Part shown: in pieces, positions 3,077 through 30,105 of the stretch | How the letters are laid out: the number at the start of each line of letters is the position of its first letter | Position numbering within the stretch: position 1 is the first letter of the stretch | Assembly (NCBI GenBank): GCA_964495025.1 | Contig: CAZBUF010000557.1 | Coordinates: 1-35,306 of the forward strand | Length of the DNA: 35,306 bases | Direction: 5' to 3' | DNA from: an uncultured Bacteroidales bacterium | GTDB taxonomy: Bacteria; Bacteroidota; Bacteroidia; Bacteroidales; UBA10428 | Made by a program: the position numbers and the translations under genes | Notes under the pieces: generated by a model | Database searches by the model: none | What the model saw: the letters and a program-made list of their open reading frames with translations, nothing else | Told to the model about the DNA's origin: nothing

Positions 3077-3128
3077 AATATTTTAGTTTTAGCTTTTTTA
3101 TGATGTTTTTATTCTTATCCTCATGCTT

Positions 3129-4793: not shown

Positions 4794-4804
4794 TTTTGTA
4801 TTGT

Positions 4805-8020: not shown

Positions 8021-8064
8021 GATATTATTAGGTATTTGGTTTTAATGTTTTCTTAAAATCATAT

Positions 8065-8085
8065 TACCTGCATATCAGGCAGGTA
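8065..8085 (-). terminator. Weak hairpin directly after the GH31 stop and upstream of susC.
   Basis: TACCTGC-atatcag-GCAGGTA (7-bp stem). It abuts the GH31 stop at 8088. On the minus strand it is followed by ATATGATTTTAAG. Confidence 0.3.
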
Positions 8086-8087
8086 TG

Positions 8088-10916: not shown

Positions 10917-10932
10917 TGGTAAATGATTTTAA

Positions 10933-10965
10933 AGAAGATAATATGCTGCCCGGGTATTATCTTCT
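10933..10965 (-). promoter_or_regulatory. Strong hairpin between the HTCS stop and the GH31 start; terminator or translational/attenuation element.
   Basis: AGAAGATAATA (10933-10943), an 11-nt GC-rich loop, then TATTATCTTCT (10955-10965): a perfect 11-bp stem. Its base is 17 nt upstream of the GH31 ATG (10916). On the minus strand it is followed by TTAAAATCATTT. Confidence 0.4.
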
Positions 10966-11084
10966 AAATTTAATTTGTGTCAGCAGGTGTATTCCAGGTT
11001 CTAAAAGTAGGGGATGTGAAAGAATTTAAGAGGACTGAATGTTTTCAACTAGGGGTTCAAATGTTAACAGAAAAATAAATTCTG

Positions 11085-14000
11085 CTAATTGCTTTTATTC
11101 TCAGAATATAATGAAGGCAGTGTTTTATACTCAGCTTTAAAGTGTTTTGCGAAGTATTTAGGGTTATTAAAACCGACAGTGTAGGCAATTTCCGAAACAG
11201 ATAACTGGCTTTTCTTAAGCAGCTGAGCAGCTCTTTTCAAACGTATTAATCGTATAAACTCAATGGGGGTTTTTCCTGTGAGGTAAGATAATTTTTTATA
11301 TAAATGGACACGGCTCATTGCCATCTCGCGGCTAAACTGTCTTACGGAGAAATCGGGCTCAGAAATATTCTTTTCAACAACATCAAGAGCTTTTCGTATT
11401 AACTTTTCATCTAATGATGTAATGCTGATATCCCCCGGCTGGATTTTTATTTGTTTGAGGTAATCTTCCCTAAGAGCTTTTCTGAGAGAAATAAGGTTGC
11501 TTATCCTCGATTGCAGTATTTCAAATGAGAACGGTTTTGTAATATAATCATCAGCTCCTGATTCAAAGCCCTCTATCTTTTGTTTTTCTGTTGCCCTTGC
11601 AGTAAGGAGGATAACAGGAATATGAGATGTTTTCTGATGACTTTTAACTTTGCGGCATAATTCTATGCCATCTCCTTCTGACATTATGATATCGCTGACA
11701 ATAAGATCAGGGACAGAGTGAACAGCTTTTTTCCAGCCTTCTTTTCCATTGGCCGCTTCAATAATATTATAATGCTGTAAAAGATTGTCTTTAAGGTAAA
11801 AACGGAAATCCTCATTGTCTTCAACAAGCAGTATCAAAGGCTTCTTATGATCTATCCTGTTTCTTTTAAGGCGGCTTGTTATATTATGTTGTTCTGAACC
11901 GGCATGCGACTTAGCTGACATATCAACAGATGTTTGCTCTGCAATATATTCATCAGCACTTCTCACAGGCAGCAATACAGCAAAACTGCTGCCTTTGTCA
12001 GGCTGGCTGTTTATAGAAATCTCACCCCCGTGAAGTTTTACAAATTCTTTGGTTAATGCAAGTCCTACGCCACTACCTCTGTTGATAACGGAACCCGGAA
12101 CAATATCCTGAAAGAAACGTTCGAATATTTTCTCATGCTTATCGGAAGGTATCCCTATACCTGTGTCGGTTACAGTTATTTCGAACCATCCGGGCCTGCT
12201 AGTCGTATTTTTCTTTTCATCGGCAGGATTTGCACTTATGGTTATGCTACCGTGCTCGTGAGTGAATTTAAAGGCATTTGAAAGAAGGTTATATAAGATC
12301 TTTTCGAGCTTATCCTGATCAAATATCATATTTAAATTATCAATGCCTGCCTGTATTTTAAAATCGATCTTTTTCTTATCTGCAAGATCTGAAAATGATT
12401 CGGACACTTCCTTTATAATACTTATAATATCACCTTCAGTGGGATTATACCTGAACTCTTCCACTTCCATTTTTCTGAAATCAAGCAACTGGTTGGCAAG
12501 GTTTAGTAATCTTTTTGCATTCCTGGAGATCATTAAAAACTGATGTTTCTGATCAGGGTCCCTGGTGTTACCTAATACTTTATTAACAGGATCAATAATA
12601 AGTGACAGGGGTGTTCTGAATTCATGGCTGATATTTGTAAAGAACTTGATTTTCATCATGTCCATATCATGCATATGTTTGGCTTCCTGCCTTTCCTGCT
12701 TTATCCTGTTGTTCATTCTTTCCCTTCTTACGATTAACATCCGGGAAAACAATAGTATGCTTATAATAAGAATAATATATATTAAAAATGCAATCCGGGT
12801 TTTCCAGAAAGGGGGCAGAATTGTAATACTAAGACTTATACCATCTTCATTCCATATACCGTCATTATTACTTGCCTTAACTTTAAAGATATATTCTCCG
12901 GGATCCATGTTCGTGAATGTTGCTTTTCTCTGTGTGCCATCTGTTGTCAGCCAGTCAGTGTTAAAACCCTCAAGTATATATGCGTACTTATTTTTTACGG
13001 GATGAAAGTAACTTAATGCGGCAAATTCAATAGAGAATACATTTTCACTGTATTTTAAGATAATCTTCTTTGTGCGTGTTATTGATTGTTTAAGAATTAC
13101 CCTGGCATTTAGCTTTTCACCGGCATTAATACTTTTATTGAAAATTTGAAAATCGGTAAAAGCAAGTTCAGGTATAACAAGATTCTCCTTTATTTCACCG
13201 GGCTGAAAAATGTTAAATCCGTTCGGGCCCCCGAATATTAATTCTCCCCGGCTTGTCTTGCAGGCTGCGTTCTCATTGAACTCTTTTCCCTGGAGTCCGT
13301 CTGATTCATCATAGTTCTTAAAACTGAATATGTACGATCCGTCTTGCCGGTCTTTTCTTATCAATAAATTAGAAAGGCCGTTAGGTGTGCTGATCCACAG
13401 ATTGCCATTACTGTCCTCCAGAATTGTATTAATCGTGTTATCAGGCAACCCGTCCTGCATCATAAAAACCTTAAAGGTTTTATCGGCTTTATTAAATAAA
13501 TTCAATCCTTCACGTGTGCCTACCCATATAAGGCCGCGGCTATCCTCAATAATAGTAATAGTATTATTATTACTTAAGCTTAAAGGATTAGTTATATCAT
13601 TGTTATAATGAATAAAACTGTTGAGCTGCCTGTCATAGAAATCTATTCCGTGTGCATGCCCAATCCACAGATTACTGTTATTATCCTCAATAATTGAAGT
13701 AATGTAATCAGAATGAACAGAATTGGCATCCCCGGCCCTGAAATGATGAAATTTATTTGTCTTACGGTTCATTAGATCCAGTCCCTTGCCTAATGTGCCT
13801 ATCCAGAGATTCTCTTCCGAGTCCTCAAATATTTCCCAAACACGATCATCTGAAAGGCTTCCGGGATCAGAAGGATCATTGCGGTAATGAATAAATTTTT
13901 TACCGTCAAAACAATTCAAGCCACCGTAGTAAGTTCCAATCCATAATTTTTGTGTACGGTCAATAAATAAACTGACAATTATATCATTACTAAGACTGTT

Positions 14001-15278
14001 AGGATCATCCGGATTATGTGTATATTTTCCTAACCTGTTCTTACTTCGGTCATAGAACATTAATCCTCCTCCGTTTGTGCCGATCCAAAGATTACCGTTA
14101 ATATCCTCAGCAAAACAGTTAACATCATCATAAAACAAATTATCAGGATCAATTACCTGATTCCTGAACAGGTTGAATTTAATCATATCTTCATGGTAGT
14201 AATTGACGCCTTTTTTGAAAGTACCAATCCAGATAATACCGGCGTTATCCTTATATAATGAACATATACTGTTCTGACTCAGACTTTTATCGTACTCTTT
14301 GTCGTTTGAAAGATATTTGATTGTGAAAGTGCCTTTATCCAGTACGTTGATACCTCCGTGATCAGTACCTATCCATATTAATCCGTTAATATCCTGCACA
14401 ACACCTTTCACAACATCAGTATTTAACTTAATACCCGATGATTTTGTATTTATATGCTTAAAAGACCGGCGTGACGCATCAAAATAAAATATACCCCGGG
14501 CATAGTTGGATACGTAAATCCAGATATCTCCTTCTGAATCAACATAAATACCGTATTCAAGGTACTCACCATCATAGTTTTTGTATAAGTAATTATTTCT
14601 GTAAATAATTTTGCTACTTCTGTGATCCATCTTTTCAAGTATACCATTATGATGTATAATCCAGAGATCATTATCAGGATCCTCGTAAATATCTGATATG
14701 AAATTTGTGAAAACAGAAGCACTGTCATCAGGGTTATGATTGAAATTGAAAGTAGCATTGTCTTTCCTGCTGTATTTGTGAAGGCCGGACACCGAGCCTA
14801 TATACCAGTAGTTGCCGGGATTGTCTTTGTATATCTTATTTATCGACTCATCATTTATATTTAATGCGTTAAGAAAGGATGATGTGTCATGATGAAAAGT
14901 TTCGTCAAGGGGATCATAAATGTTCAATCCGTTGTTAGTGTTAACCCATAACCTTCCGCGATGATCCTCGAAAACGCTGGTGATGAAATTGTCACTTATT
15001 GATGTTGAATCAGGAAGATCATGTCTGAATATTTTAAAATTGTACCCGTCAAACCTGTTAAGCCCTGACTTTGTTCCAAACCACATGAAGCCAATACTGT
15101 CTTTCAGAATACAATTTACCTGGTTATTTGATAGTCCGTCGTTAATATTCAGGTGAGAAAATTTGAAATGATCCGGCTGGGATATGAGCATAAATCCTGA
15201 AACTGCCCATAAGAGAATTATAAGAAAACTCTTTTGATTAGCCATGATAATCTTACTTAGTATGTATCTGACAGTCAT
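11085..15278 (-). CDS. Hybrid two-component system sensor kinase/response regulator (HTCS): periplasmic beta-propeller repeats + Y_Y_Y, TM, HisKA, HATPase, REC, AraC HTH.
   Basis: Many Reg_prop-like repeats (LWIGT, IWIGT, LWVGT). TM segment (IAFLIYIILIISILLF). H-box FTNISHEFRTPLSLI. ATPase G-boxes (VTDTGIGIP, GSGVGLAL). Receiver domain (ILLVEDNEDF...DLIVSDIIM...LLTA). AraC HTH (VSEIAYTVGFNNPKYFAKHFK). The start could instead be Met12 (MANQKSF, about 15245). Confidence 0.95.
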   Translation of the reverse strand: MTVRYILSKIIMANQKSFLIILLWAVSGFMLISQPDHFKFSHLNINDGLSNNQVNCILKDSIGFMWFGTKSGLNRFDGYNFKIFRHDLPDSTSISDNFITSVFEDHRGRLWVNTNNGLNIYDPLDETFHHDTSSFLNALNINDESINKIYKDNPGNYWYIGSVSGLHKYSRKDNATFNFNHNPDDSASVFTNFISDIYEDPDNDLWIIHHNGILEKMDHRSSKIIYRNNYLYKNYDGEYLEYGIYVDSEGDIWIYVSNYARGIFYFDASRRSFKHINTKSSGIKLNTDVVKGVVQDINGLIWIGTDHGGINVLDKGTFTIKYLSNDKEYDKSLSQNSICSLYKDNAGIIWIGTFKKGVNYYHEDMIKFNLFRNQVIDPDNLFYDDVNCFAEDINGNLWIGTNGGGLMFYDRSKNRLGKYTHNPDDPNSLSNDIIVSLFIDRTQKLWIGTYYGGLNCFDGKKFIHYRNDPSDPGSLSDDRVWEIFEDSEENLWIGTLGKGLDLMNRKTNKFHHFRAGDANSVHSDYITSIIEDNNSNLWIGHAHGIDFYDRQLNSFIHYNNDITNPLSLSNNNTITIIEDSRGLIWVGTREGLNLFNKADKTFKVFMMQDGLPDNTINTILEDSNGNLWISTPNGLSNLLIRKDRQDGSYIFSFKNYDESDGLQGKEFNENAACKTSRGELIFGGPNGFNIFQPGEIKENLVIPELAFTDFQIFNKSINAGEKLNARVILKQSITRTKKIILKYSENVFSIEFAALSYFHPVKNKYAYILEGFNTDWLTTDGTQRKATFTNMDPGEYIFKVKASNNDGIWNEDGISLSITILPPFWKTRIAFLIYIILIISILLFSRMLIVRRERMNNRIKQERQEAKHMHDMDMMKIKFFTNISHEFRTPLSLIIDPVNKVLGNTRDPDQKHQFLMISRNAKRLLNLANQLLDFRKMEVEEFRYNPTEGDIISIIKEVSESFSDLADKKKIDFKIQAGIDNLNMIFDQDKLEKILYNLLSNAFKFTHEHGSITISANPADEKKNTTSRPGWFEITVTDTGIGIPSDKHEKIFERFFQDIVPGSVINRGSGVGLALTKEFVKLHGGEISINSQPDKGSSFAVLLPVRSADEYIAEQTSVDMSAKSHAGSEQHNITSRLKRNRIDHKKPLILLVEDNEDFRFYLKDNLLQHYNIIEAANGKEGWKKAVHSVPDLIVSDIIMSEGDGIELCRKVKSHQKTSHIPVILLTARATEKQKIEGFESGADDYITKPFSFEILQSRISNLISLRKALREDYLKQIKIQPGDISITSLDEKLIRKALDVVEKNISEPDFSVRQFSREMAMSRVHLYKKLSYLTGKTPIEFIRLIRLKRAAQLLKKSQLSVSEIAYTVGFNNPKYFAKHFKAEYKTLPSLYSENKSN

Positions 15279-15367: not shown

Positions 15368-15404
15368 AGAGGGACAGCTCCCTTTCACGGGGAGTTATCC
15401 CTCT
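15368..15404 (-). terminator. Probable intrinsic terminator of the nickel operon; GC-rich hairpin and member of the GGGACAG/CTGTCCC motif family.
   Basis: AGAGGGA-cag-CTCCC-tttcacg-GGGAG-tta-TCCCTCT: 12 bp of stem with a 3x3 internal loop. It starts 6 nt after the stop at 15410. On the minus strand it is followed by TATTCATATATTTTTC. Confidence 0.5.
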
Positions 15405-15409
15405 CCATG

Positions 15410-16522
15410 TTAAAGGTAAACATTGATCCCACTTCCGTCAAGGAGGTTATAAGGAGCATCAAGGCAGGACAGGCACAAATCATTATTGTTTATTTTCTTT
15501 ATCCGTGATTTCATAACACTTTCTTTGCAGGAGCTGCATATAACACTATCATGTATTGGTGCATAATCGGGGATTTTAACCATGGTTTCTGTTATGGTAA
15601 AAAGCTTGTTGAAAGGGATATTCAATGTGTCGAAGGCACAGCTTAATGCTGCTTTTTTATAAAGTGATTTAAGATTTTTATCATGGTTTTGTTTCACGAC
15701 AACTTTACTGTAATATTTATCGAAATCAGGATTTATTTTCAGGATAGTATCCCTTGACTGCGGTAATGAACAAATTCTGATTCCTTTGCCATGCCTGCTG
15801 GCAAGGGTAAATGCCGTTTTGCCCAGATCCTTGAATATTAATGCGTTATTACCAAATGTGCATCCGGTGACATACTGAACGCCATCTGAAAAACAGTTGT
15901 TGGTTTCAGTTATTGCCACAATATCCTCCATCCCGTCTGAGAATGTTTTCATTTCTTTTACGGCTCCTGAAGCGGCAATAACACCCATAGCGAGTCCCGG
16001 GCATATATGCCTGTGTATCTGGCCGGCATTAATAAGTAATTGTTCAAGGTTGCCTGATAATACATATTTTATAATATCACATCCGGGATCTGCTTTAAGC
16101 CTCCCCTTATTAATTTCACTGTTTATTTCATTATCACTGAATATCGAGTTATCACAGGGCTTAATGTCAATGACAGGTGTATTGTTAATTGCATCCAGTC
16201 CTTCGACAATAAGTTTATTCCTTATACATTTTATCAGTTTTACAGTTGTTATTCCTATTGAGTTCGGCCTGTCAGGACTGCGTGAGGCAAAGACGCCCCG
16301 TTCGGCACCCGTATGTATTTTAAGTGTCATTCTGTAATTCTGCGATTTATGAAAATAGAAGACGACATCAAGGTATTCACAATCACCGATATTTAAGAGT
16401 GCTTCCGTGTATTTATCGTCGATAATTATTGTACTCTGATTTTTCTTTATTTCCCGGTGATCAGCAGGCTCATTAAATTTATTCTCAACAATACCTACAG
16501 GTTTCAATTGATAATTCTCCAT
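15410..16522 (-). CDS. Fusion protein: N-terminal TrmO/TsaA (YaeB, UPF0066) SAM-binding beta-barrel domain, FmdE-family domain (PF02663 type), and C-terminal zinc ribbon. No signal peptide.
   Basis: TsaA motifs: LKPVGIVEN, RGVFASRSPDRPNSIGITTVKLI, EGLDAINNTPVIDIKP. FmdE motifs: HRHICPGLAMGVIAASGA, VAITETNNCFSDGVQYVTGCTFGNNALIFKDLGKTAFTL. Terminal CSSCKES...N11...CLSC. It is the last gene of the nikR-led operon, 33 nt after the ATPase. Confidence 0.85.
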   Translation of the reverse strand: MENYQLKPVGIVENKFNEPADHREIKKNQSTIIIDDKYTEALLNIGDCEYLDVVFYFHKSQNYRMTLKIHTGAERGVFASRSPDRPNSIGITTVKLIKCIRNKLIVEGLDAINNTPVIDIKPCDNSIFSDNEINSEINKGRLKADPGCDIIKYVLSGNLEQLLINAGQIHRHICPGLAMGVIAASGAVKEMKTFSDGMEDIVAITETNNCFSDGVQYVTGCTFGNNALIFKDLGKTAFTLASRHGKGIRICSLPQSRDTILKINPDFDKYYSKVVVKQNHDKNLKSLYKKAALSCAFDTLNIPFNKLFTITETMVKIPDYAPIHDSVICSSCKESVMKSRIKKINNNDLCLSCLDAPYNLLDGSGINVYL

Positions 16523-16555: not shown

Positions 16556-17314
16556 TTACAAACCTTCAGGAACGATATAAAGACCTTCATTTTCACTTAT
16601 AATACGGACCCTGATATCGTAAAGCTTTTCAATATTTTCCGGTGTTATGGTTTCCCTGCCTCCGCAGGCAAATATTCTTCCTTCCTTAAGCATTATAATA
16701 TTGCCGGCATAGCGTATGGCCATGTTAATATCATGCAGGGCAATAACGACTGTTATTCCCTTGGCAGATAATGTTTTCAGCAGTTCCATAACTTCGATCT
16801 GGTGTTTTATATCGAGGTTGGCAGTGGGTTCGTCAAGAAATAAAATATCGGGTTCCTGGGCCAGGGCTCTTGCTATAAGGACAGCTTGCTGTTGTCCGCC
16901 GCTGAGCTTGTTCATCTCCCTCATTGCAATATCCTGCAAATGCAGGGCGCTGAGAATGTCGGCAGTGACATCAAGATCATGCACCGAAGGCTTCCAGTTT
17001 ATATAGGGCTTACGTCCCAGAAGCACAACGTCGAACACACGAAGTGATGATTTTCTGCCTTCGTTCTGCGGCACATAGGCTATTTCTTTTGCGAGCTCAC
17101 CCGGCGCGAATGAGTGAATGATCCTTTCATCGATCAGCACCGTGCCTTTACGCACTTTGAGTATTCCATTCATGCATTTTATAAGGGTACTCTTTCCTGA
17201 ACCGTTAGGTCCGACAAGAGCAACAAAGTCCCCTTTGGCAATCCGGCTGTTTATATTCTGTAAAGCCGGTGTGCCGTTGTAGCTGAAGACAATATCATGA
17301 ATGGTTATTTTCAT
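16556..17314 (-). CDS. ABC transporter ATP-binding protein, FecE/FepC/BtuD (NiuE-like) class.
   Basis: Walker A GPNGSGKST, signature LSGGQQQ, Walker B ILFLDEPTANLD, H-loop ALHD. Confidence 0.95.
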   Translation of the reverse strand: MKITIHDIVFSYNGTPALQNINSRIAKGDFVALVGPNGSGKSTLIKCMNGILKVRKGTVLIDERIIHSFAPGELAKEIAYVPQNEGRKSSLRVFDVVLLGRKPYINWKPSVHDLDVTADILSALHLQDIAMREMNKLSGGQQQAVLIARALAQEPDILFLDEPTANLDIKHQIEVMELLKTLSAKGITVVIALHDINMAIRYAGNIIMLKEGRIFACGGRETITPENIEKLYDIRVRIISENEGLYIVPEGL

Positions 17315-17367: not shown

Positions 17368-18435
17368 CTACCAGTAACCTTTACCCATCCCTTTTATAAG
17401 CAGAAATAAAAATAAGGGGGCACCTATAAACGATGTAACGATACCTACCGGCAGGATAACCGGAGATATAACAGTTCTGGCCAGTGTGTCGGACAGAAGC
17501 AAAAACATTCCCCCGAAAATAGCTGATGCAGGAATCAGGAATTGTTCGTCACCCCCGATAATACGGCGTACGATATGAGGAACAACCAGTCCGACAAATG
17601 CGATAATACCAAAAAAGGCCACTACAACCGCAGTTGCCAGTGCCGCAACAATCATACCTGACAAACGTACGGCTGTTATATTCACTCCCAGGCTTTTTGC
17701 ATGCTCGTCGCCTGATTGTAAAGACTTGTAGTTCCAGCTTTGCCGGATAAAAAACAATATAACCGGAATCAGAGTAATTGCCAGTATAAGCGAATTCTTC
17801 CATGTTGCCCTTCCCAAATCACCGAAGGTCCAGAATACAATTGAAGCAAGCTGGACACTGTCAGCAAAATACTGCATGGCTGAAATTCCTGCGCCAAACA
17901 GGGAAGAAATGATGATACCGGAAAGAATTATTATCTCGGGAGTCGCCCCCCTGTATTTTGACAATAGCAGGATAACGGCCACACTGGCCAGGCTCCATAT
18001 AAATGCTGAAGTTGTAACAAGGTACGGATTATTTACTGCTGCGACATCATTTGACCCGCTGTAGCTGCTTCCCGCCCCAAGCACGACGATGGCAAATGCC
18101 GCACCAAAAGCCGATGACCCTGATATGCCAAGAGTGAAGGGTGAAGCCAGGGGGTTCCTCAATATACTCTGAATGACAGCCCCTGACATAGACAACGCTA
18201 TTCCACCCAGGCAGGCGCCGATAATGCGGGGCATCCTTATACTTAATACAACCCGGGATGTAAATTCAGTACCTTTGCCGAGCAGAAGGCTGTAAAGATC
18301 CTTAAGGCCTATACCGGCGGAGCCTGAAATAAGAGCAGCCTGTATCACTATTAAAAGAATAACCGAAACAGAAATGATAAAAAATATCCTTCTTTTTACA
18401 TACTTCCTGTATTGTGCGACAATCTTATCCGGCAT
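17368..18435 (-). CDS. FecCD/BtuC-family ABC permease (type II importer).
   Basis: 355 aa and polytopic. FecCD-typical segments: RMPRIIGACLGGIALSMSGAVIQSILRNPLASPFTLGISGSSAFG, GGDEQFLIPASAIFGG, PVGIVTSFIGAPLFLFLL. Its start overlaps the binding-protein stop (TGATG), suggesting translational coupling. Confidence 0.92.
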   Translation of the reverse strand: MPDKIVAQYRKYVKRRIFFIISVSVILLIVIQAALISGSAGIGLKDLYSLLLGKGTEFTSRVVLSIRMPRIIGACLGGIALSMSGAVIQSILRNPLASPFTLGISGSSAFGAAFAIVVLGAGSSYSGSNDVAAVNNPYLVTTSAFIWSLASVAVILLLSKYRGATPEIIILSGIIISSLFGAGISAMQYFADSVQLASIVFWTFGDLGRATWKNSLILAITLIPVILFFIRQSWNYKSLQSGDEHAKSLGVNITAVRLSGMIVAALATAVVVAFFGIIAFVGLVVPHIVRRIIGGDEQFLIPASAIFGGMFLLLSDTLARTVISPVILPVGIVTSFIGAPLFLFLLIKGMGKGYW

Positions 18436-19535
18436 CAGAAATCGTTTTTACTCATTGTCCTGAAAATATATGAATCAGCTGTCATCTCACCGTATAGCTC
18501 TTTACCAAGAAACATTTCTGATATCTCATTGGTCTTTTGCTCAACGTCAACATCGGCAAAGCTTCCGGGGTACAACATTTTGCCTGCATACCAGGCATTG
18601 GCCAGAACCAGCTCATAGTTCACAGCATAGTTGTTGTAGGGCATAAGAACATAAATCTTATCATTCATGACAGCATCCAGTGCATTATATAATACTGTGT
18701 TTTTTGCAAGGTCTTCTTTTACAAGGCTTAAACCCGATTGATCAATGAACAGAACATCGGGATTCCATTTCATTAACTGTTCCTTGTCAATATAAGTACC
18801 CTTTACATGCGATACTAACCTTTTGTCAATATCTGAAGCCACATTCACAGCATTTATAAATATAAAAGGGGGATAATACGGCTGTGTTGAAATTATACCA
18901 TATGTTCCGCTGTAAGGAACACCTCCTATATAGACTGATGGCTTGTCTTTCTTCGCAATGGCTGCGGTCCGCCTGTTCAGGTCGTCAACAGAACTTCTGA
19001 TATATGTGATAAGCGAATCCGCCCTGCCTTCCTTATGAAGTATTTTACCTATAAGCTGAAGAGAGGCGAAAAGGATATCCCTGTGAGTGCCGAATTCGGG
19101 ACATTCGAGTGCCACCACGGGAATACCTGTTTTTTTCTGAAGATCATCGGCATCACCGGTAGTGGTGTAGGTAATAAATATAACATCCGGTTGCGATTTT
19201 AAGATCAATTCGGCATCTCCGCCCATTATTGGTCCTAATGACGGCAAATCATACAATTCAGGATGTGCCGTAAGATAAGGCCTGCTACCTCTCCTTTCGG
19301 CTTCTTCAATGCCGGCAACCATATCCGAAGCATCCATATATATCAGTAAACGCAAAGCCCCTGCCCGCAATCCTGCGATCTTTTTTACCGCTGAAGGAAC
19401 ATACACCTCTCTGCCAAGCATATCTTTTACAGCGGCCATCCCCGCCTGATCCGAGGGGGCCCGGCCGGTGCAGCCTGTTATGAATATAACCGGCATGAAC
19501 AATATAAGTGTCCTTATTTTATATATCTGCAGCAT
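18435..19535 (-). CDS. Periplasmic substrate-binding lipoprotein of the Fe-siderophore/cobalamin/heme (cluster A, Peripla_BP_2; CeuE/NiuB-like) class.
   Basis: I place the start at Met34 of the listed ORF (MLQIYKIRTLILFMPVIFITGCTG, a lipobox). Its ATG at 19535-19533 lies 1 nt after the receptor stop (19537). The longer 19634 start would overlap the receptor gene. Peripla_BP_2-like features: KKIAGLRAGALRLL, PDVIFITY, WNPDVLFID. Confidence 0.85.
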   Translation of the reverse strand: MLQIYKIRTLILFMPVIFITGCTGRAPSDQAGMAAVKDMLGREVYVPSAVKKIAGLRAGALRLLIYMDASDMVAGIEEAERRGSRPYLTAHPELYDLPSLGPIMGGDAELILKSQPDVIFITYTTTGDADDLQKKTGIPVVALECPEFGTHRDILFASLQLIGKILHKEGRADSLITYIRSSVDDLNRRTAAIAKKDKPSVYIGGVPYSGTYGIISTQPYYPPFIFINAVNVASDIDKRLVSHVKGTYIDKEQLMKWNPDVLFIDQSGLSLVKEDLAKNTVLYNALDAVMNDKIYVLMPYNNYAVNYELVLANAWYAGKMLYPGSFADVDVEQKTNEISEMFLGKELYGEMTADSYIFRTMSKNDF

Positions 19536-19536
19536 A

Positions 19537-21570
19537 TTAAAGTTTGATGGCCACCCTGCCTGTGATAACCCTGCCCGGAGAAATATAATCTGTTGTTTCC
19601 ATATGTTCGTTGTCAAAGATGTCCTGGACGTCAAGTGAGATTATAAATTTGTCCGCTATTTGCTTTGACAGGCGTAAATCAAATGTAAAATAAGAATCCA
19701 GCTTTTGCGTATTCGCATCATCGCCATATTGTTCTCCTTTATATAATCCCCTGATACTGGCATTAACAATTTTATTTTTTAAGAATACCGAAGCGGAAGC
19801 AGTGTGTTTAGGTACATATTTCAGATATTTCTTTTCCAGGTCCGGCCTTTCTGTAAAAGCATCGATCTTTGAGTCGCAGTAAGCATAATTGGCCATAATA
19901 TCCAGGACATCGGACAGCTCATACGAAACTTCGAATTCTGCTCCCATGATATTTACGCCGGTAACGTTTTCCCTGATATAGATGGCCCGCCCGAAAATAC
20001 TGTCACCTGTTGAAACATAGTACAGGAAGTCTTTGCCGGTGGAGTAATAGGCTGAAGTCGATATCTTCAGTCTGCTGACAGGAAAAATATCAAATCCTGC
20101 CTCAAAATTATTCATTGTTTCGGGGCCCAGCTCAGGATTGGCATATTTTGGGCCTACCCACATCCAGCCTGTACGTGTAAGGTCATCAAGAATGGATGCC
20201 CTGAAACCATGTGAGTACGACAGGTAGGCGCTTAGTTCCTTAATGAAGTTAAACCTCATGCCCAGCCTTGGAGACAGTTCGGTCCATGTATGATCCCTGA
20301 GCTCAGGTGTGGTGTTCCACGGATCTGTGGTGTAGTAATCTCCTCCGGTGAATTTTACCTGGTCGAGACGCAGGCCGGCAATAATCCTTATCCTGTTGTC
20401 AAGCAAAACATGCTCATCCTGGATAAAGCCTGCTATGGTTTGAATTTTACCCTCGTTATATACCGTATCATATGGTGCCGTCTGGTAATAATCACCACCT
20501 TCAATGCTGCCCTGTTTGAATTCGAAACCACCGGTTACCGTATTATTTTCTGTCAGCTCACCGTTTATGCTGAACAGTGTTCCCAAATCCTCTCTTAACG
20601 AGTTCACATCATAACGCGAGTAATTTCCGCCCCTCATATTTTCATTTATATCATAATAATGCTCGAGCTGGTAATAGGTATTGAGTTCGTAATGCAGATT
20701 TTCGTTGCCGCCATTCAGGTTCCCTCGAATAAGGTCGGTGTTAAAATTTCTGTAGCAGCCTTCAGGGGCATAAATCCGGTAACCCTCGCCTCTTTTATCT
20801 CTGAAAGCATCATATTGCAGCTCCCACTTAAACCATCCCGACTCGTCATACCCTGCCCTGGCGGATATGCCGATCTCTTCCAGCGAGCGTGAAATATCAT
20901 AAGGAGTGCGGTTTTCCTTCAGTACATTGTTGTATCCGTCGCTTTTCAGATAATACTGTGAAACGGAACCGTAGTAGCCTTTATCAGTGAGTATCCTCAC
21001 ATTCAAATCCTGCCTTATTGTACTGAATGTGCCGAAACTTACGGCACCAAAAATTTCCTGTGGCTTCACCGGCTTCCTGGTAATAATATTTATAACCCCT
21101 CCCATGGCATTATTCCCGTATAATGAGGAGCCGGGGCCCTTGAAGATTTCGATCTGCTTTACATCATACTGGTTTATTCGGTTCCAGTTTACACCGCCCT
21201 CATCGGAAGTATTTATGGGAACGCCGTTTAATAATACAAGGGTCCTGGATTGTTCATCACCTGATAATCCTCGCAGGGTGATCATCGGACGCTGACTGTA
21301 TATCCCTGTTGTCCGGTTTACATTTATTCCGGGAGTATATCTCAGTATGTCATCAACCTGCTGGGCAGGTGTCGATTCAATCGCATCCATCCTGATAAGC
21401 GAAATTCTGCCCGGCACTTCCCTTATATTACGAAAGGTTTTTGTTGCTGTTACTACCACTTCTTCAAGCTCAATAGTGTCATTCAGAGTTTCCTGCGTGT
21501 AAACCCTTGAAAATGATAAAATTACTATTGATGCCAGTAGGGTAGTTTTCATTCTGAATAATGTTCTCAT
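19537..21570 (-). CDS. TonB-dependent outer-membrane receptor (plug + 22-strand barrel class); putative nickel-chelate receptor by context.
   Basis: Signal peptide, then TonB box (ELEEVVVTATK). Plug motifs: RISLIRMDAIESTPAQQVDDILRYTPGINV, ITLRGLSG, LLNGVPIN, IEIFKGPGSSLYGNNAMGGVINIIT. It sits between nikR and the ABC importer genes. Confidence 0.9.
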   Translation of the reverse strand: MRTLFRMKTTLLASIVILSFSRVYTQETLNDTIELEEVVVTATKTFRNIREVPGRISLIRMDAIESTPAQQVDDILRYTPGINVNRTTGIYSQRPMITLRGLSGDEQSRTLVLLNGVPINTSDEGGVNWNRINQYDVKQIEIFKGPGSSLYGNNAMGGVINIITRKPVKPQEIFGAVSFGTFSTIRQDLNVRILTDKGYYGSVSQYYLKSDGYNNVLKENRTPYDISRSLEEIGISARAGYDESGWFKWELQYDAFRDKRGEGYRIYAPEGCYRNFNTDLIRGNLNGGNENLHYELNTYYQLEHYYDINENMRGGNYSRYDVNSLREDLGTLFSINGELTENNTVTGGFEFKQGSIEGGDYYQTAPYDTVYNEGKIQTIAGFIQDEHVLLDNRIRIIAGLRLDQVKFTGGDYYTTDPWNTTPELRDHTWTELSPRLGMRFNFIKELSAYLSYSHGFRASILDDLTRTGWMWVGPKYANPELGPETMNNFEAGFDIFPVSRLKISTSAYYSTGKDFLYYVSTGDSIFGRAIYIRENVTGVNIMGAEFEVSYELSDVLDIMANYAYCDSKIDAFTERPDLEKKYLKYVPKHTASASVFLKNKIVNASIRGLYKGEQYGDDANTQKLDSYFTFDLRLSKQIADKFIISLDVQDIFDNEHMETTDYISPGRVITGRVAIKL

Positions 21571-21600: not shown

Positions 21601-21627
21601 GTAATACTATATAATATTTCGTGTTAC
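21601..21627. promoter_or_regulatory. Candidate NikR operator between nikR and the TonB-dependent receptor gene.
   Basis: GTAATAC-N13-GTGTTAC. The half-sites are a 6/7 inverted repeat and the spacer is AT-only apart from one C. The site lies 31-57 nt upstream of the receptor ATG (21570). Its architecture matches the second box at 22048-22074. Confidence 0.4.
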
Positions 21628-21644
21628 CATATAAATAAAAAAAA

Positions 21645-22046
21645 TCAGTTTGCCCTGCTCATTGTCAGTTTTCCGTGCCGTATACCTTTTACAGCAATAA
21701 GCTTGTCTGACAGCCCTGTTAAAACCGAAGCTTTCCCTTTAACCGCAATTATCTCCATGCAATTATCATGGTCGAGATGGAAATGCTGTGATGAAAGTAT
21801 CACCTCGTGATAATCATGCTGTATATCAGTGAGCTGATTCAGAATATCGCGTTTATGATGATCATAGACCAGTGTAACCGAACCTGCAACGATATTGTTG
21901 CACAGCCATTTTTTTTCGACAATGTTCTTGTTTATTAAATACCTTATAGCCTGTGATCTGTTTGAGAGATGATTTTCATTAATATAATCATCCAATGCAT
22001 CCATTAGTTCTTTTTCAAGCGAAACGCCAAATCTGATAACTGACAT
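21645..22046 (-). CDS. nikR: Nickel-responsive transcriptional regulator NikR (ribbon-helix-helix + ACT-like Ni-binding domain).
   Basis: N-terminal RHH (IRFGVSLEKELMDALDDYINENHLSNRSQAIRYLI). C-terminal high-affinity Ni site pattern HFHLDHDNC (H-x-H-x5-C) with an upstream His cluster (VYDHH, HDYHE). 133 aa is the typical NikR length. Confidence 0.92.
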   Translation of the reverse strand: MSVIRFGVSLEKELMDALDDYINENHLSNRSQAIRYLINKNIVEKKWLCNNIVAGSVTLVYDHHKRDILNQLTDIQHDYHEVILSSQHFHLDHDNCMEIIAVKGKASVLTGLSDKLIAVKGIRHGKLTMSRAN

Positions 22047-22047
22047 A

Positions 22048-22074
22048 GTGTTACCTTTTAAAAATAAGTGATAC
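22048..22074. promoter_or_regulatory. Candidate NikR operator (autoregulation) directly upstream of the nikR start codon.
   Basis: GTGTTAC-N13-GTGATAC (5/7 inverted repeat). It begins 2 nt upstream of the nikR ATG (22046) and ends 7 nt downstream of the minus-strand -7 box. It could also serve the divergent 22265 gene. Confidence 0.4.
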
Positions 22075-22153: not shown

Positions 22154-22222
22154 ACAGCCGGTAAGGAAGGGGGCTGTCCCCTCCCTTGAGACAGCCTGTC
22201 AGTAAGGAGGCTGTCCCCTCTC
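22154..22222. repeat. Two tandem about 37-nt units, each forming an ACAGCC/GGCTGT hairpin with a GTAAGGA-containing 12-nt loop followed by CCCCTC.
   Basis: Unit 1: ACAGCC (22154-22159) ggtaaggaaggg GGCTGT (22172-22177) CCCCTCCC. Unit 2: GACAGCC (22190-22196) tgtcagtaagga GGCTGTC (22209-22215) CCCTCTC. It lies in the nikR/22265 divergent intergenic region. Confidence 0.8.
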
Positions 22223-22264
22223 TGAGTAAGGGAGCAACCGCGCCTCAAAACAAAAAAAGTAAAA

Positions 22265-23722
22265 ATGAGAAAAGTTCTTTTCCTGATAGCTTTTGTTTTT
22301 CTTTTCTTATATAGTGTTGTGTATGCTCATTCGGGGAAACCCGACTACAGGGTTATTATCGATACTGATTGTGCTTTTGACGATTTCAGGGCTATAACAA
22401 TGCTTCTGGCATCATCAAAGGTTGAGGTGCTGGGCATAACCACCTCTGACGGCACACTTGATCCTGTTGAGGGACAGCAACGGATCAGATCCCTGCTGAA
22501 ATGTTTTCATCACGAAGGTATACACGTGGCCGGAGGGGAAGTAGTGATAAAAACACCTCCCGCATGGAGGGGACTGAATAAATGCATACCATGGACGGGA
22601 GAGGAGGCACAGGGTACAAATATAAATAATGATTTATCAGCCAGGGATTTTATAATCAAGACGATAAGTAATGAGGTGAAACCCGTGACCGTAATTTGTC
22701 TGGGCAGCCTCACTAATATAGCAACTGCAATTCAGAAGGAAGACAGCATCATAAGAAATATTGAAAGAATAATATGGTATAACAGGGGTAATGATATTGA
22801 AAACGGCACAAATTACGGGTTTGACATATCTTCAGCCGACTTCATAATCAGATCGGGCATAAGGATTGATATGGTTTCAAATCCGCAACACGAAGGATTA
22901 AAATATGACAGTGCTTTATCAGATAGTATCGCAGGCATAAACTCAGTTTATGCAAGACAAATTTCATATGTTCATAATAGTGATGAGCTTAAAAATATAT
23001 CTCATAAAGGCTATCTGAATATTTGGGATGATCTTCTGCCGGTATATTTATTGTCGCCCGGAGCATTTACCGCTGACAGTTCCGTCAAATTTCCCGGCCT
23101 CAGATTAGTGAAGCCCGCTGATGAGATTAAGATAAAAGAACAGATAATTGATATTCTTGATATTGACAGATATAGTGAGAGTAAGGTATTTGAAAGGTTC
23201 CCTGCTGATAGTTCATTGTACAGGAATGATGTTGCAGCGGTGATGAATGAAATAATTGATAAACACGGACTGCAGGAGTGGAGACTTGGAGTATTGACAA
23301 ACGAGATACACGGACATCTTGGAATTTATGCAACTGTTGGTGTTAAAATGGGGCTCAGGGCAAGGGAGTATTTCAATATAGGCCTGGACGATATCAGGAT
23401 CATAAGCTATGCGGGAAGGCAACCACCGGTAAGTTGCATGAATGACGGATTGCAGGTAGCTACCGGCGGTACGCTGGGGCACGGACTGATATTCCTGGCT
23501 GACGAAACTAAAGGCAAGCCAAAGGCTTATTTTTCATATAAAGACAAAACAGTAATAATAAGACTTAAGGATGAATATGTGAATATCATTAAAAATGATA
23601 TTAAGCAATGTATTTCTGAGCATGGTAATTTAACCAATGAATACTGGGAATGTGTGAGAAAACTGGCAATTGAATACTGGCTGGCATGGGACAGAAATAT
23701 TATGTTTGATTTGGAGTATTGA
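22265..23722 (+). CDS. Secreted/periplasmic fusion protein: inosine-uridine nucleoside hydrolase (IUNH)-like N-domain plus a divergent FmdE-like C-domain.
   Basis: Signal peptide MRKVLFLIAFVFLFLYSVVYA. IUNH Ca-binding fingerprint VIIDTDCAFDDFRAI (DxDxxxDD) and ICLGSLTNIA. The C-terminal region aligns by eye with the FmdE pattern of the 15410-16522 protein: HGHLGIYATVGVKMGLRA versus HRHICPGLAMGVIAASGA, and SCMNDGLQVATGGTLGHG versus NCFSDGVQYVTGCTFGNN. The CPG cysteine is lost. Transcribed divergently from nikR. Confidence 0.7.
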   Translation: MRKVLFLIAFVFLFLYSVVYAHSGKPDYRVIIDTDCAFDDFRAITMLLASSKVEVLGITTSDGTLDPVEGQQRIRSLLKCFHHEGIHVAGGEVVIKTPPAWRGLNKCIPWTGEEAQGTNINNDLSARDFIIKTISNEVKPVTVICLGSLTNIATAIQKEDSIIRNIERIIWYNRGNDIENGTNYGFDISSADFIIRSGIRIDMVSNPQHEGLKYDSALSDSIAGINSVYARQISYVHNSDELKNISHKGYLNIWDDLLPVYLLSPGAFTADSSVKFPGLRLVKPADEIKIKEQIIDILDIDRYSESKVFERFPADSSLYRNDVAAVMNEIIDKHGLQEWRLGVLTNEIHGHLGIYATVGVKMGLRAREYFNIGLDDIRIISYAGRQPPVSCMNDGLQVATGGTLGHGLIFLADETKGKPKAYFSYKDKTVIIRLKDEYVNIIKNDIKQCISEHGNLTNEYWECVRKLAIEYWLAWDRNIMFDLEY

Positions 23723-23737
23723 CATAGGGAGGGGACA

Positions 23738-23759
23738 GGGGGGACAGCCCCCCCTTTTT
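23738..23759 (+). terminator. Intrinsic-terminator-like hairpin after the IUNH/FmdE-like gene.
   Basis: GGGGGG-ACAG-CCCCCC(C) followed by TTTTT. It begins 16 nt after the stop (23722) and ends 13 nt before the next ATG (23773). Read on the minus strand, 23727-23754 is GGGGGGGCTGTCCCCCCTGTCCCCTCCC, an inverted copy of the repeat family. Confidence 0.6.
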
Positions 23760-23772
23760 AACAAAGTATATT

Positions 23773-24483
23773 ATGAGTGAACAAATTTGGGTACTTTCAG
23801 TAACGGCGGCATCTGTAGGTTTTATACATACCGTTCTCGGGCCGGATCATTATCTTCCGTTCATAGTTATGTCTAAAGCAAGAAAATGGTCAATATTCAA
23901 AACGGGTTTTATTACTGTATTGTGCGGAATAGGCCATGTAGGGAGTTCGATACTCATTGGCGCGCTGGGCATTGCATTTGGCATAGGATTATCACGCGTA
24001 AAAGGATTAGAGGGCATGCGCGGTGAGATAGCCGCATGGGCTTTTATTGTCTTCGGGTTCATATATATGCTTTGGGGCATATACAGGGCAGTAAAAAATA
24101 AGCCTCATAAACACCGGCATATTCATAATGGAGTGGCACATGAGCATGAGCATGTACATGCAAATGATCATGATCACACACACAAGAGTGAGAAAGCCAT
24201 AAATTTAACACCCTGGGTGCTCTTTCTTATTTTTGTACTGGGGCCGTGTGAGCCCCTGATTCCCATATTAATGTACCCTGCTGCCAGGCATAATACACTG
24301 GGGATAATTACAGTATCCCTGATATTTGCTGTTACAACCATATTAACTATGCTCATCCTGGTTCTGCTTGTCTCTTTCGGATTAAAATCCTTGCCCTTCG
24401 GAAAGCTGGAGAGATATACCCATGCCATAGCCGGCGCCACAATATTGTTAAGCGGTTGTGCAATCGTGTTCCTTGGATTGTAA
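23773..24483 (+). CDS. Six-TM membrane protein with a central His-rich loop; putative Ni/Co transporter of the NicO/RcnA- or HupE/UreJ/UreH-like type. Transport direction unknown.
   Basis: TM1 motif GFIHTVLGPDHYLPF, which I compare (from memory) with G-F-x-H-x3-G-x-D-H of HupE/UreJ and GFxHAxxPGHGK of RcnA. Central loop HKHRHIHNGVAHEHEHVHANDHDHTH. Second-half motif LGPCEPLIPIL, which I recall as RcnA-like G-x-x-P-C. Family assignment is by motif only. Confidence 0.6.
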   Translation: MSEQIWVLSVTAASVGFIHTVLGPDHYLPFIVMSKARKWSIFKTGFITVLCGIGHVGSSILIGALGIAFGIGLSRVKGLEGMRGEIAAWAFIVFGFIYMLWGIYRAVKNKPHKHRHIHNGVAHEHEHVHANDHDHTHKSEKAINLTPWVLFLIFVLGPCEPLIPILMYPAARHNTLGIITVSLIFAVTTILTMLILVLLVSFGLKSLPFGKLERYTHAIAGATILLSGCAIVFLGL

Positions 24484-24497
24484 AACCGGATGGGAGA

Positions 24498-24577
24498 CAA
24501 GGGGGGGCAGCTCCCTAAAGGAGGCTGTCCCCCTCCGAAGGAGGCTGTCCCCTCTGTAAGGAGGCTGTCCCCTCTAT
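24498..24577. repeat. Tandem array of 20-bp units AAGGAGGCTGTCCCC(C)TC-NN: three near-perfect copies plus one degenerate copy.
   Basis: U1 24518-24537 aaggaggctgtccccctccg. U2 24538-24557 aaggaggctgtcccctctgt. U3 24558-24577 aaggaggctgtcccctctat. Degenerate U0 24498-24517 caagggggggcagctcccta. The 20-mer GTAAGGAGGCTGTCCCCTCT at 24556-24575 is identical to 22202-22221. The array lies between convergent genes, and U3 overlaps the stop of the 24574-26688 CDS. Confidence 0.85.
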
Positions 24578-28769: not shown

Positions 28770-29636
28770 TCAGAGGTTGCTATTCAGCCACTTATACCAT
28801 TCATCCATGCCCTGTCCTGTTTTTGCCGACAGTTCAATGAACTGCAGTTCAGGATTGACCTTTAATGCATATTCTTTTGCTTTTTCCAGGCTAAAATCAA
28901 CGTAGGGGAGAAGGTCAGTTTTATTAATTATACAAAGCGCGGAACTTCGGAACATATAGGGGTATTTTACGGGTTTGTCCTCACCTTCGGTAACACTCAT
29001 GATCAATACCCTGTGACTCTCACCGAGATCAAATAATGCCGGGCAAACAAGATTACCCACGTTCTCGATCATAAGGATCGAATTATCGGGGATATTTAAT
29101 TTCTTTACTGCGGTACTTACCATTTCAGCATCAAGATGGCACCCGCTTCCTGTATTGATCTGAATGACCGGTGCTCCTGTTGATCTGATCCGGTTTGCAT
29201 CGTTCAATGTTTGCTGATCCCCTTCAATAACTGAAAAATTAATTTTCCCCGGCATCTCCTTTATTGTTTTTTCCAGGATACTTGTCTTGCCTGAGCCGGG
29301 AGAACTGACAAGGTTAATAGCTTTAATATTTTTCCCTTCGAAAAATCCACGGTTTCTTTCAGCCAGGAGGTTGTTCTTATATAAAACATCCTGTTCGACC
29401 TCAATCTTTCTGTCGTGGGTATGGGGGTGAGTATGATCGTGGCTATGCACATGCCCGTTGCTACTATGTTCATGATCATGGTTGTGAGTATGCCCGTCGA
29501 TTTCATGCTCATGATCATGACTATGTCCATGTTCATTGCTTTCATGTTCGTGAGAATGTTTCCCTTTGCCAGTATCTCCGGGTTTTAAAACCGTATATTT
29601 CGTATCAGGGTTGCCGCAGCCGCAAGTGTCACACAT
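28770..29636 (-). CDS. hypB: Hydrogenase/urease nickel-incorporation GTPase HypB (G3E family) with a His-rich N-terminal stretch.
   Basis: N-terminal high-affinity site MCDTCGCG. His-rich tract (HSHEHESNEHGHSHDHEHEIDGHTHNHDHEHSSNGHVHSHDHTHPHTH). P-loop SSPGSGKTS. CH motif (GSGCHLDA), ENVGNLVCP, INKTDL. Confidence 0.95.
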   Translation of the reverse strand: MCDTCGCGNPDTKYTVLKPGDTGKGKHSHEHESNEHGHSHDHEHEIDGHTHNHDHEHSSNGHVHSHDHTHPHTHDRKIEVEQDVLYKNNLLAERNRGFFEGKNIKAINLVSSPGSGKTSILEKTIKEMPGKINFSVIEGDQQTLNDANRIRSTGAPVIQINTGSGCHLDAEMVSTAVKKLNIPDNSILMIENVGNLVCPALFDLGESHRVLIMSVTEGEDKPVKYPYMFRSSALCIINKTDLLPYVDFSLEKAKEYALKVNPELQFIELSAKTGQGMDEWYKWLNSNL

Positions 29637-29763
29637 CTTTTAAATTTTACCGGTTGATTATATTCTTCTGACTATAACCGACTGCCGTATGTCAGTCAGT
29701 ACAGATTTTTTCAAGGCACAAAAATACTAAAAAGTAAGATAGCAAACAAAGATACCTGCCACG

Positions 29764-30105
29764 TTAATCGACGTTTATTGATTTTACCCTCAGTTCTTTT
29801 CCACGTATAATGTCAAAACCAAACGAACCGCATTGCGGGCATTGTTCAATATGGCTTTCCGGAGAGAACTCAGTGCCGCATTCGTTGCACCTTGCCTTTG
29901 ACTTTATTTCATTTATTGTAATTTTCGCATTTTCAAGCAGCGTATCAATGACCGCTGATTCCAGTGCAAATTCAAGGGCTTCCACTATCACTCCGGATAG
30001 AACGCCAACGTCGATCTCAACCTCATTTATTCTTTCAGCGCCGGCATCTTTTGCTGTTCCGGAAGCGATATCAACAATATTCAGTGCAACTGAGAATTCG
30101 TGCAT
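29764..30105 (-). CDS. hypA: Nickel insertion metallochaperone HypA.
   Basis: 113 aa. N-terminal MHEFS (Ni-binding MHE motif). Zn site CNECG...CPQCGS. Confidence 0.9.
   Translation of the reverse strand: MHEFSVALNIVDIASGTAKDAGAERINEVEIDVGVLSGVIVEALEFALESAVIDTLLENAKITINEIKSKARCNECGTEFSPESHIEQCPQCGSFGFDIIRGKELRVKSINVD

Follow-up and report, generated by a model that had tools for sequence, protein, structure and literature searches.

A TsaA-like/FmdE fusion gene at the end of a NikR-associated nickel import operon in Bacteroidota: a candidate nickel-handling accessory in place of a predicted tRNA methyltransferase

Introduction

Why should a protein that bears the hallmarks of a tRNA methyltransferase be encoded at the end of a nickel import operon? 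The question is raised by a stretch of 35,306 nucleotides (nt) from an uncultured Bacteroidales bacterium (contig CAZBUF010000557.1; hereafter, the window), in which an open reading frame (ORF) of 370 amino acids (aa) on the minus strand (15410..16522, ATG to stop) fuses a TsaA-like barrel, an FmdE module, and a zinc ribbon (Pfam TrmO_N plus FmdE). The fusion gene is the last of an operon whose order, all on the minus strand, is nikR, TonB-dependent receptor, binding protein, FecCD permease, ATPase, and fusion. In our judgment, the chances are about even that the gene encodes a cytoplasmic nickel-handling accessory (an acceptor or chaperone) of the NikR regulon and not a tRNA m6t6A methyltransferase; the functional statements made here draw on sequence, predicted structure, and gene context.

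To our knowledge, the FmdE family has gone without an assigned function since the 1990s, and the short YaeB-like barrels likewise lack one. Some elements of the present system are already on record, namely its architecture and the tendency of FmdE genes to lie beside those for metal transporters: in 2010, the PF02663-PF01980 fusion was named among the architectures that lacked a solved structure, most PF02663 genes were found to adjoin genes for metal-ion transporters, and a formylmethanofuran dehydrogenase gene context was noted in just 13 of 208 family members (Axelrod et al. 2010, PMC2954224). A 2009 survey found the known nickel transporters to be nearly absent from Bacteroidota (PMC2667541), and a 2024 survey recorded fusions of FmdE with a tRNA methyltransferase in archaea, which were read in a methanogenesis frame (PMC11237513). 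The searchable literature yielded no description of NikR-regulon membership, of breadth across Bacteroidota, or of the loss of the PRQ loop discussed below, and no paper linking FmdE or TrmO with NikR; an earlier mention of any of these may nevertheless exist. A conserved, probably NikR-controlled operon that joins FmdE and short YaeB-like barrels to a nickel importer provides testable functions for two families, and it would add a new component to the nickel supply of anaerobic Bacteroidota.

Domain Architecture and the Candidate Metal Site

The first-pass annotation, prepared from the bare sequence, had proposed a TrmO/TsaA-FmdE-zinc-ribbon fusion and had recommended profile searches and structure prediction to confirm both folds. 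These have now been run: the ORF is exact, Pfam, TIGR00104, AlphaFold2, and Foldseek agree on the fusion, and the TrmO_N and FmdE folds were each matched. TrmO_N (PF01980) lies at aa 19-122 (E 7.8e-25) and FmdE (PF02663) at aa 169-309 (E 2.5e-30, with the full profile, 1-133, covered), and the protein scores 105.7 bits against TIGR00104 (TsaA/TrmO), thereby passing the cutoff of 93.25. With the AlphaFold2 model (mean predicted local distance difference test [pLDDT] score 83; predicted template-modeling [pTM] score 0.60), Foldseek paired the N-terminal domain with the AF0241 complex of S-adenosylmethionine (SAM) (2nv4, target TM 0.83) and also with TrmO (7btu), and the C-terminal part with Ta1109, which comprises FmdE and a zinc finger (2gvi, target TM 0.62), as well as with 2glz and 3d00; sequence searches of the PDB concur with these assignments.

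Four segments may be distinguished along the minus-strand gene. A short TsaA/YaeB-type beta-barrel (aa 1-133; 16124..16522), in which R81, D110, and K121 are kept and the PRQ loop is gone, leads into a helical linker that includes the N-terminal helices of the FmdE module (aa 134-168; 16019..16123; model helices 136-144, 148-156, and 159-170). The alpha+beta core of FmdE (aa 169-309; 15596..16018) contains an invariant C221 in addition to the ligands described below, and the Cys4 zinc ribbon (aa 326-355; 15458..15547) has C329, C332, C350, and C353, all invariant; the ribbon gives a weak zf-dskA_traR match, and the Foldseek alignment with 2gvi takes in the zinc finger of that structure. The motifs RSPDRPNSIG, HICPG, TGCT, and CSSC...CLSC, to which the first-pass annotation had pointed, are all present; DAINNTPVIDIKP is present too, with N at the position where the annotation had given G. 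As the fusion protein has no signal peptide, it is presumably cytoplasmic. The same pair of domains (TrmO_N and FmdE) is found in 120 of the 120 best homologues.

Membership of the FmdE family is evident from the FHGHxC-type motif, which reads IHRHIC in the window protein and HGHFC in the consensus, and from the distal Cys, C210. H170, H172, C174, and C210 are invariant among 26 aligned family members and align with His15, His17, Cys19, and Cys55 of 2GLZ; these four residues are predicted to form a His2Cys2 metal site. The site in 2GLZ is solvent-exposed, lies on the floor of a wide groove, and was occupied by a mixture of Zn and Ni, and the solved FmdE proteins are domain-swapped dimers held by the zinc finger (Axelrod et al., PMC2954224). 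The FHGHxC motif and the second Cys are thus shared by the fusion with 2GLZ, 2GVI, and 3D00, of which 2GVI and 3D00 also share the C-terminal zinc finger. Unlike other FmdE proteins, the fusion has a context that is specifically one of NikR and nickel, a PRQ-less barrel as its partner, and no formylmethanofuran dehydrogenase genes nearby; fmd/fwd genes were found neither in the window nor in the related loci.

The two modules also occur in other combinations. A scan of 1.84 billion representative proteins returned 4704 relatives (87 at E<=1e-30). Their architectures include TsaA-FmdE, in which the ribbon may or may not be present, its reverse, FmdE-Zn-TsaA, and PadR-FmdE-Zn. That the TsaA and FmdE modules are fused in either order is a classic sign of two modules that work together, and the PadR-FmdE fusion points to FmdE as a module that senses a ligand or a metal. 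Fusion with an ABC (ATP-binding cassette) transporter subunit was not found among the 150 best representatives. The reverse-order and PadR-FmdE-Zn proteins P0299, P0318, and P0293 (loci L085, L088, and L087) belong to other lineages, and the PadR-FmdE-Zn gene is followed by a methyltransferase gene and a MatE exporter gene.

The TsaA Barrel and the TrmO Question

The barrel shares with TrmO/TsaA (E. coli YaeB, a class VIII SAM-dependent tRNA m6t6A37 methyltransferase) its fold, the RSPxRPN and LDxxxxTPxxDIK motifs, and three of the four characterized SAM contacts. TrmO is defined by the barrel, by the SAM contacts Gln25, Arg92, Asp125, and Lys136, and by an essential C-terminal domain with a DPRxxY motif; the Arg, Asp, and Lys contacts hold the carboxylate and amino groups of SAM (Kimura et al., PMC4132733). 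In the fusion, the latter three correspond to R81, D110, and K121 (Arg82, Asp111, and Lys122 of AF0241), which are invariant among the 26 family members; in a separate alignment of ten sequences (A2), D110 and K121 are again invariant and R81 is replaced by His in one of the ten. The invariance of these residues shows that selection acts on a predicted pocket for an alpha-amino-acid group, whose candidate occupants are SAM or a nickel ligand (histidine or a molecule of opine type, for example).

Unlike TrmO, the fusion has neither TrmO_C with its DPRxxY motif nor the PRQ loop, is joined to FmdE, and lies in a probably NikR-regulated nickel uptake operon. TrmO_C (PF18389) gave no match in the fusion even at E<=5, whereas a canonical TrmO run as a control does match. 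The PRQ loop is stripped by a deletion of 4-5 residues from all six of the FmdE-fused barrels aligned, which represent several lineages and both domain orders. The lost loop, (A/S)P(R/H)QG, bears the Gln contact to the alpha-amino group of SAM (Gln25 in E. coli, Gln22 in AF0241) and is kept, within the same alignment, by AF0241, Methanobacterium homologues, and one canonical TrmO. With TrmO_C absent and the loop deleted, the doubt that the first-pass annotation had voiced over a role in tRNA methylation proves justified. Relatives of the fusion are nonetheless named TrmO/TsaA by NCBI and JGI, and formylmethanofuran dehydrogenase subunit E elsewhere in public records; the TrmO names arise because the fusion passes the TIGR00104 equivalog cutoff, and they are regarded as over-annotation. 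The annotation error extends to both misnomers.

The nearest solved structure is that of AF_0241 (PDB 2NV4, SAM-bound; 34% identity), a short archaeal YaeB-like protein whose single-domain barrel likewise lacks TrmO_C; AF_0241-type proteins differ from the fusion in that they keep the PRQ loop, stand alone, and have no metal genes in the three contexts inspected. Crystals of AF0241 and RPA0152 held endogenous SAM, the archaeal short forms are without the TrmO C-terminal domain, and m6t6A is unknown in archaea (PMC4132733).

Two subsidiary proposals concerning the barrel were rejected. The first, a general tie of short TsaA proteins to metals, found no metal genes in the three archaeal contexts reached by the AF0241 search, and the nickel link is therefore specific to the PRQ-less, FmdE-partnered branch. 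The second took the family consensus DPRIEI (aa 145-150, where the window protein reads DPGCDI) for a remnant of DPRxxY, the TrmO_C motif; given the lack of any TrmO_C match and the recurrence of DPRIEI in stand-alone secreted FmdE paralogues and in the PadR-FmdE protein, the motif is assigned to the FmdE module.

Conservation of the Nickel Context and NikR Boxes

The first-pass annotation had called the fusion the terminal gene of the operon, and so it is: its start lies 33 nt past the ATPase stop, and a terminator-like hairpin (15370-15383), within a GC-rich inverted repeat (15368..15404, minus strand), follows just 3' of its own stop. When one genome per GTDB species was scanned, relatives of the fusion were found in 329 GTDB species; 80 loci, mostly from Bacteroidales, Marinilabiliales, and Cytophagales with some from Balneolales, were retrieved, and homologues of the window genes were located in them with tblastn. 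The first-pass annotation had named, as an outcome that would refute its idea, a fusion scattered at random relative to metal transport genes; the placement is clearly not random: the ATPase gene stands directly upstream in 61 of the 74 loci with at least 0.9 kb of upstream sequence (median gap 32 nt), and the full set of binding protein, permease, and ATPase is present in 54 of the 64 with at least 3.3 kb. Where at least 6 kb is available (53 loci), ABC genes are found in 46, the receptor in 35, nikR in 34, and either ABC genes or nikR in 51.

Most of the loci without ABC genes adjoin nikR, hypA/hypB, [NiFe]-hydrogenase genes, or secondary nickel permeases. Examples include hypF..hypA-hypB-nikR-fusion beside [NiFe]-hydrogenase genes (L034), nikR-fusion-(nucleoside-hydrolase-like/FmdE, IUNH-FmdE)-His-rich permease (L038), the fusion followed by a HupE_UreJ_2 gene (L068), and fusion-permease (L044 and L079). 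In L086, from a GC-rich organism whose fusion is 42% identical, the order is binding protein-FecCD-ATPase-fusion-nikR. Since the fusion is also found without an ABC importer, its role looks like general cytoplasmic nickel handling rather than the processing of one imported chelate.

With sufficient nickel, NikR typically acts as a repressor of uptake genes. The operator of delta-proteobacterial NikR is GTGTTAC-N13/14-GTAACAC, of which an everted form exists as well (PMC545781), and it is against this consensus that sites in the present loci were scored as sequence predictions. An everted site with one mismatch (GTAATAC-N13-GTGTTAC, 21601..21627) lies between nikR and the receptor gene and is the sole match of that form in the window (0.03 expected by chance); a site of the non-everted form with two mismatches (GTGTTAC-N13-GTGATAC, 22048..22074) abuts the nikR start, faces the divergent operon, and is the sole match of its form (0.05 expected by chance), and related loci conserve the equivalent position. 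Over 1.15 Mb of such loci, the stretches of 250 nt that precede nikR, receptor, and binding-protein genes make up 2.1% of the sequence yet contain 27 of 45 NikR-box-like sites, a 69-fold enrichment (p ~1e-33); the sites also occur where nikR is not adjacent. No Rfam match to a riboswitch (B12, NiCo, or others) was found in the window, and a sigma-70 promoter scan, a method ill-suited to Bacteroidota, did not rise above the shuffled background.

Proposed Function and Alternatives

Given repression by NikR at sufficient nickel, the fusion would be co-expressed with the TonB receptor and the FecCD-type ABC nickel importer once that repression lifts, that is, under nickel limitation. Its FmdE module would then capture Ni(II) at the solvent-exposed His2Cys2 site, either from the importer or from the nickel species that the importer delivers, and the nickel would be handed to HypA/HypB-type chaperones or client enzymes. 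The Cys4 ribbon would be structural, supporting a domain-swapped dimer as in the solved FmdE proteins, by analogy with which the fusion probably acts as a dimer. The PRQ-less barrel, with its Arg/Asp/Lys triad, may add another pocket, which would accept SAM or a nickel ligand of amino-acid type and would cooperate with the metal site.

Counterparts to this arrangement are known for other import systems. Soluble cytoplasmic proteins end TonB-receptor/ABC import operons for heme (PhuS/ShuS) and siderophores (Fes and ViuB), and FrpB4 of H. pylori is a TonB-dependent receptor of nickel uptake. The operon logic of PhuS/ShuS, Fes, and ViuB is the same as that of the fusion, although their folds are unrelated and their cargo different. 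With FrpB4 and NiuBDE of H. pylori the likeness is one of kind, extending to FecCD-type nickel import, a TonB-dependent receptor, and a cytoplasmic metallochaperone partner. NiuBDE is reported to import nickel as a FecCD-type system, with NiuD as a target of the chaperone SlyD (PMC5140060, PMC7840056); SlyD, however, shares no sequence relation with the fusion. Compared more broadly with HypA, HypB, UreE, CooT, and SlyD, the fusion has hypA/hypB co-localized with it and a predicted Cys/His site, but no homology to any of them.

Several points weigh against a nickel acceptor or chaperone. Nickel binding by the fusion protein is something that we infer, as are the hand-off, the dimerization, and any role for SAM, and the need for a SAM-type barrel is left unexplained. 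A NikR box at two mismatches or fewer is present in only 21 of 61 loci, and the reverse-order fusions come from other lineages, on short contigs or in uninformative contexts. A distant similarity links the binding protein to MolA (HI_1472, E 4e-15), which binds molybdate/tungstate. Furthermore, Zn exceeded Ni by 2.6:1 in the 2GLZ site, the protein having crossed a Ni column, and FmdE was first met in operons for a Mo/W enzyme (PMC2954224).

The alternative that survives best, unlikely yet a serious candidate, is that of an enzyme whose barrel would use SAM in building or dismantling a nickel chelator, with the nickel substrate or product seated at the FmdE site. An amino-acid-type nickelophore might be methylated in this way or might receive an aminocarboxypropyl group, by analogy with the Cnt (staphylopine/pseudopaline) operons or with the siderophore-processing enzymes encoded beside type II importers. 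In keeping with this proposal, TonB receptors and FecCD importers normally carry chelates and not free ions, and a neighboring gene joins FmdE to a nucleoside-hydrolase-like domain, so that nucleoside-binding partners recur. The invariance of R81, D110, and K121, which places the pocket under selection, is likewise to be expected of an enzyme, as is the endogenous SAM of the AF0241 and RPA0152 crystals (PMC4132733). The PRQ loop with its SAM contact is, however, deleted in every FmdE-fused barrel examined, and neither an exporter gene nor a further biosynthetic gene recurs in the operon among the related loci; moreover, no chelate would be expected at the loci where the fusion accompanies a HupE/UreJ-type or UreH-like permease or hyp genes.

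A related and similarly doubtful proposal is that the PRQ-less barrel and the His2Cys2 site of FmdE together constitute a two-pocket nickel machine, which would make or break a nickel chelate at the FmdE site, the ligand in the barrel being SAM or an amino-acid- or nucleoside-type nickel ligand. If true, this would supply the FmdE family with its first biochemical function (metal capture and insertion), would explain the presence of FmdE in fmd operons, PadR fusions, and secreted forms, and would give a function to the YaeB-like branch that is now annotated as tRNA methyltransferases.

Rather improbable is a role in which the protein does not carry nickel but senses it in the cytoplasm and gates the importer at the post-translational level (trans-inhibition). 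Such a sensor would accord with the close coupling to the ATPase gene already described, with the PadR-FmdE fusion, in which FmdE can serve as a sensor domain, and with the dimeric state expected both of the fusion, given the dimers of TrmO and of FmdE proteins, and of the ABC ATPase pair; the reported control of NiuD by SlyD offers a precedent (PMC7840056). On the other hand, the protein is kept at nikR/hyp loci without adjacent ABC genes, and the scan of the best representatives returned no fusion to an ABC subunit.

It is very improbable that the cargo of the transporter is not nickel but an Fe-siderophore, heme, a corrinoid, or molybdate/tungstate, with the fusion serving that cargo. The distant likeness of the binding protein to MolA and the historical tie of FmdE to a Mo/W enzyme would fit, as would the best NCBIfam matches of the ABC part, which for the ATPase are of heme, Fe-dicitrate, and corrinoid type (that is, heme/Fe/B12-type); these matches, however, fall far under the family cutoffs, nikR and the NikR boxes are conserved, hypA/hypB and hydrogenase genes are neighbours, and neither a cobalamin nor any other riboswitch was found in the window. 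Finally, a genuine TrmO that methylates t6A37 in tRNA and has acquired a metal-binding add-on is scarcely credible, for the passing of the TIGR00104 cutoff and the TrmO/TsaA names given by NCBI and JGI are set against the absence of TrmO_C and DPRxxY, which are essential in E. coli, the assignment of the family DPR motif to the FmdE module, the deletion of the PRQ loop, and an exclusively nickel gene context.

Other Genes of the Nickel Locus

Upstream of the putative nickel-handling gene, the minus strand of the window carries the ABC transporter ATPase (16556..17314; PF00005), the FecCD/BtuC-type (type II) permease (17368..18435; PF01032, E 4e-84), the class III substrate-binding protein (18435..19634; PF01497, Peripla_BP_2), the TonB-dependent outer-membrane receptor (19537..21570; Plug and TonB_dep_Rec), and nikR (21645..22046), whose product combines a ribbon-helix-helix with NikR_C (E 1.3e-32; NF003381, 152 bits). 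The nearest solved relative of the binding protein is TM0189 (2etv, E 1e-84); a literature search on binding proteins of the TM0189/2ETV and 9HRJ types found nothing useful. As called, the ORF of the binding protein has a TTG start that falls within the receptor gene; the true start is probably M34 (~19535), which is favored by alignments with homologues and by a lipobox (FITGC), gives a lipoprotein signal, and would follow the receptor stop directly.

The divergent, plus-strand operon begins with a gene for a secreted protein (22265..23722) that fuses a nucleoside-hydrolase-like domain to FmdE (IU_nuc_hydro and FmdE; N-terminal signal sequence) and that probably shares the NikR regulon with the TsaA-like fusion, to which the first-pass annotation had not tied it. 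The DTDCAFDD Ca-site motif is kept in this protein, and its FmdE core reads HGHLG, with the third ligand changed from Cys to Gly, and SC..DG; from these features the product looks like a periplasmic form of FmdE. Weak homologues (35-38% identity) are found in L011 and L038. The next gene (23773..24483, plus strand) encodes a His-rich membrane protein (DsbD_2/UreH-like), a putative nickel permease; its DsbD_2 match we take to be a UreH-like domain. With an HTVLGPDH motif in the first transmembrane segment and the loop HKHRHIHNGVAHEHEHVHANDHDHTH, the product is probably a secondary nickel transporter, and a homologue lies immediately 3' of the fusion in ~10 of the 80 related loci.

Further FmdE forms accompany the fusion elsewhere. 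A stand-alone paralogue consisting of FmdE and a zinc ribbon is encoded directly 3' of the fusion in L011 (11352-12146) and L052 (~11462-12190); it has an N-terminal hydrophobic, signal-like segment, yet keeps all the Cys ligands. In L075 (4627-6615), from a metagenome-assembled genome labeled Thermoplasmatota, the fusion comes after a stand-alone FmdE of 141 aa (HGHLG type), together with a different, ZnuBC-like ABC pair and with nikR upstream on the opposite strand; as the protein is 46% identical to those of Bacteroidota, the bin assignment may be wrong.

At a distance of 6 kb, the window also carries hypB and hypA (28770..30105, minus strand), the nickel metallochaperones of [NiFe]-hydrogenase. 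HypB has a His-rich N-terminus, no other hyp or hydrogenase genes are present in the window, and meaB lies nearby (32179-33267).

Copies of a short GC-rich inverted repeat (GGGAGCTGTCCC...) stand at the ends of the nickel genes (15368-15404, 23738-23752, and 24501-24534), and a related core, GCTGTCCCC, is found at ~22160-22240 in the leader of the divergent operon. The element has five matches in the window against 0.39 expected, and these recurrent repeats may be terminator hairpins or a REP-like element. Directly 3' of the fusion, an unrelated polysaccharide-utilization locus occupies 1829-15278 on the minus strand, with a gene for a hybrid two-component regulator first and with GH31, SusC/SusD, and a xyloglucan-type surface glycan-binding protein among its further products.

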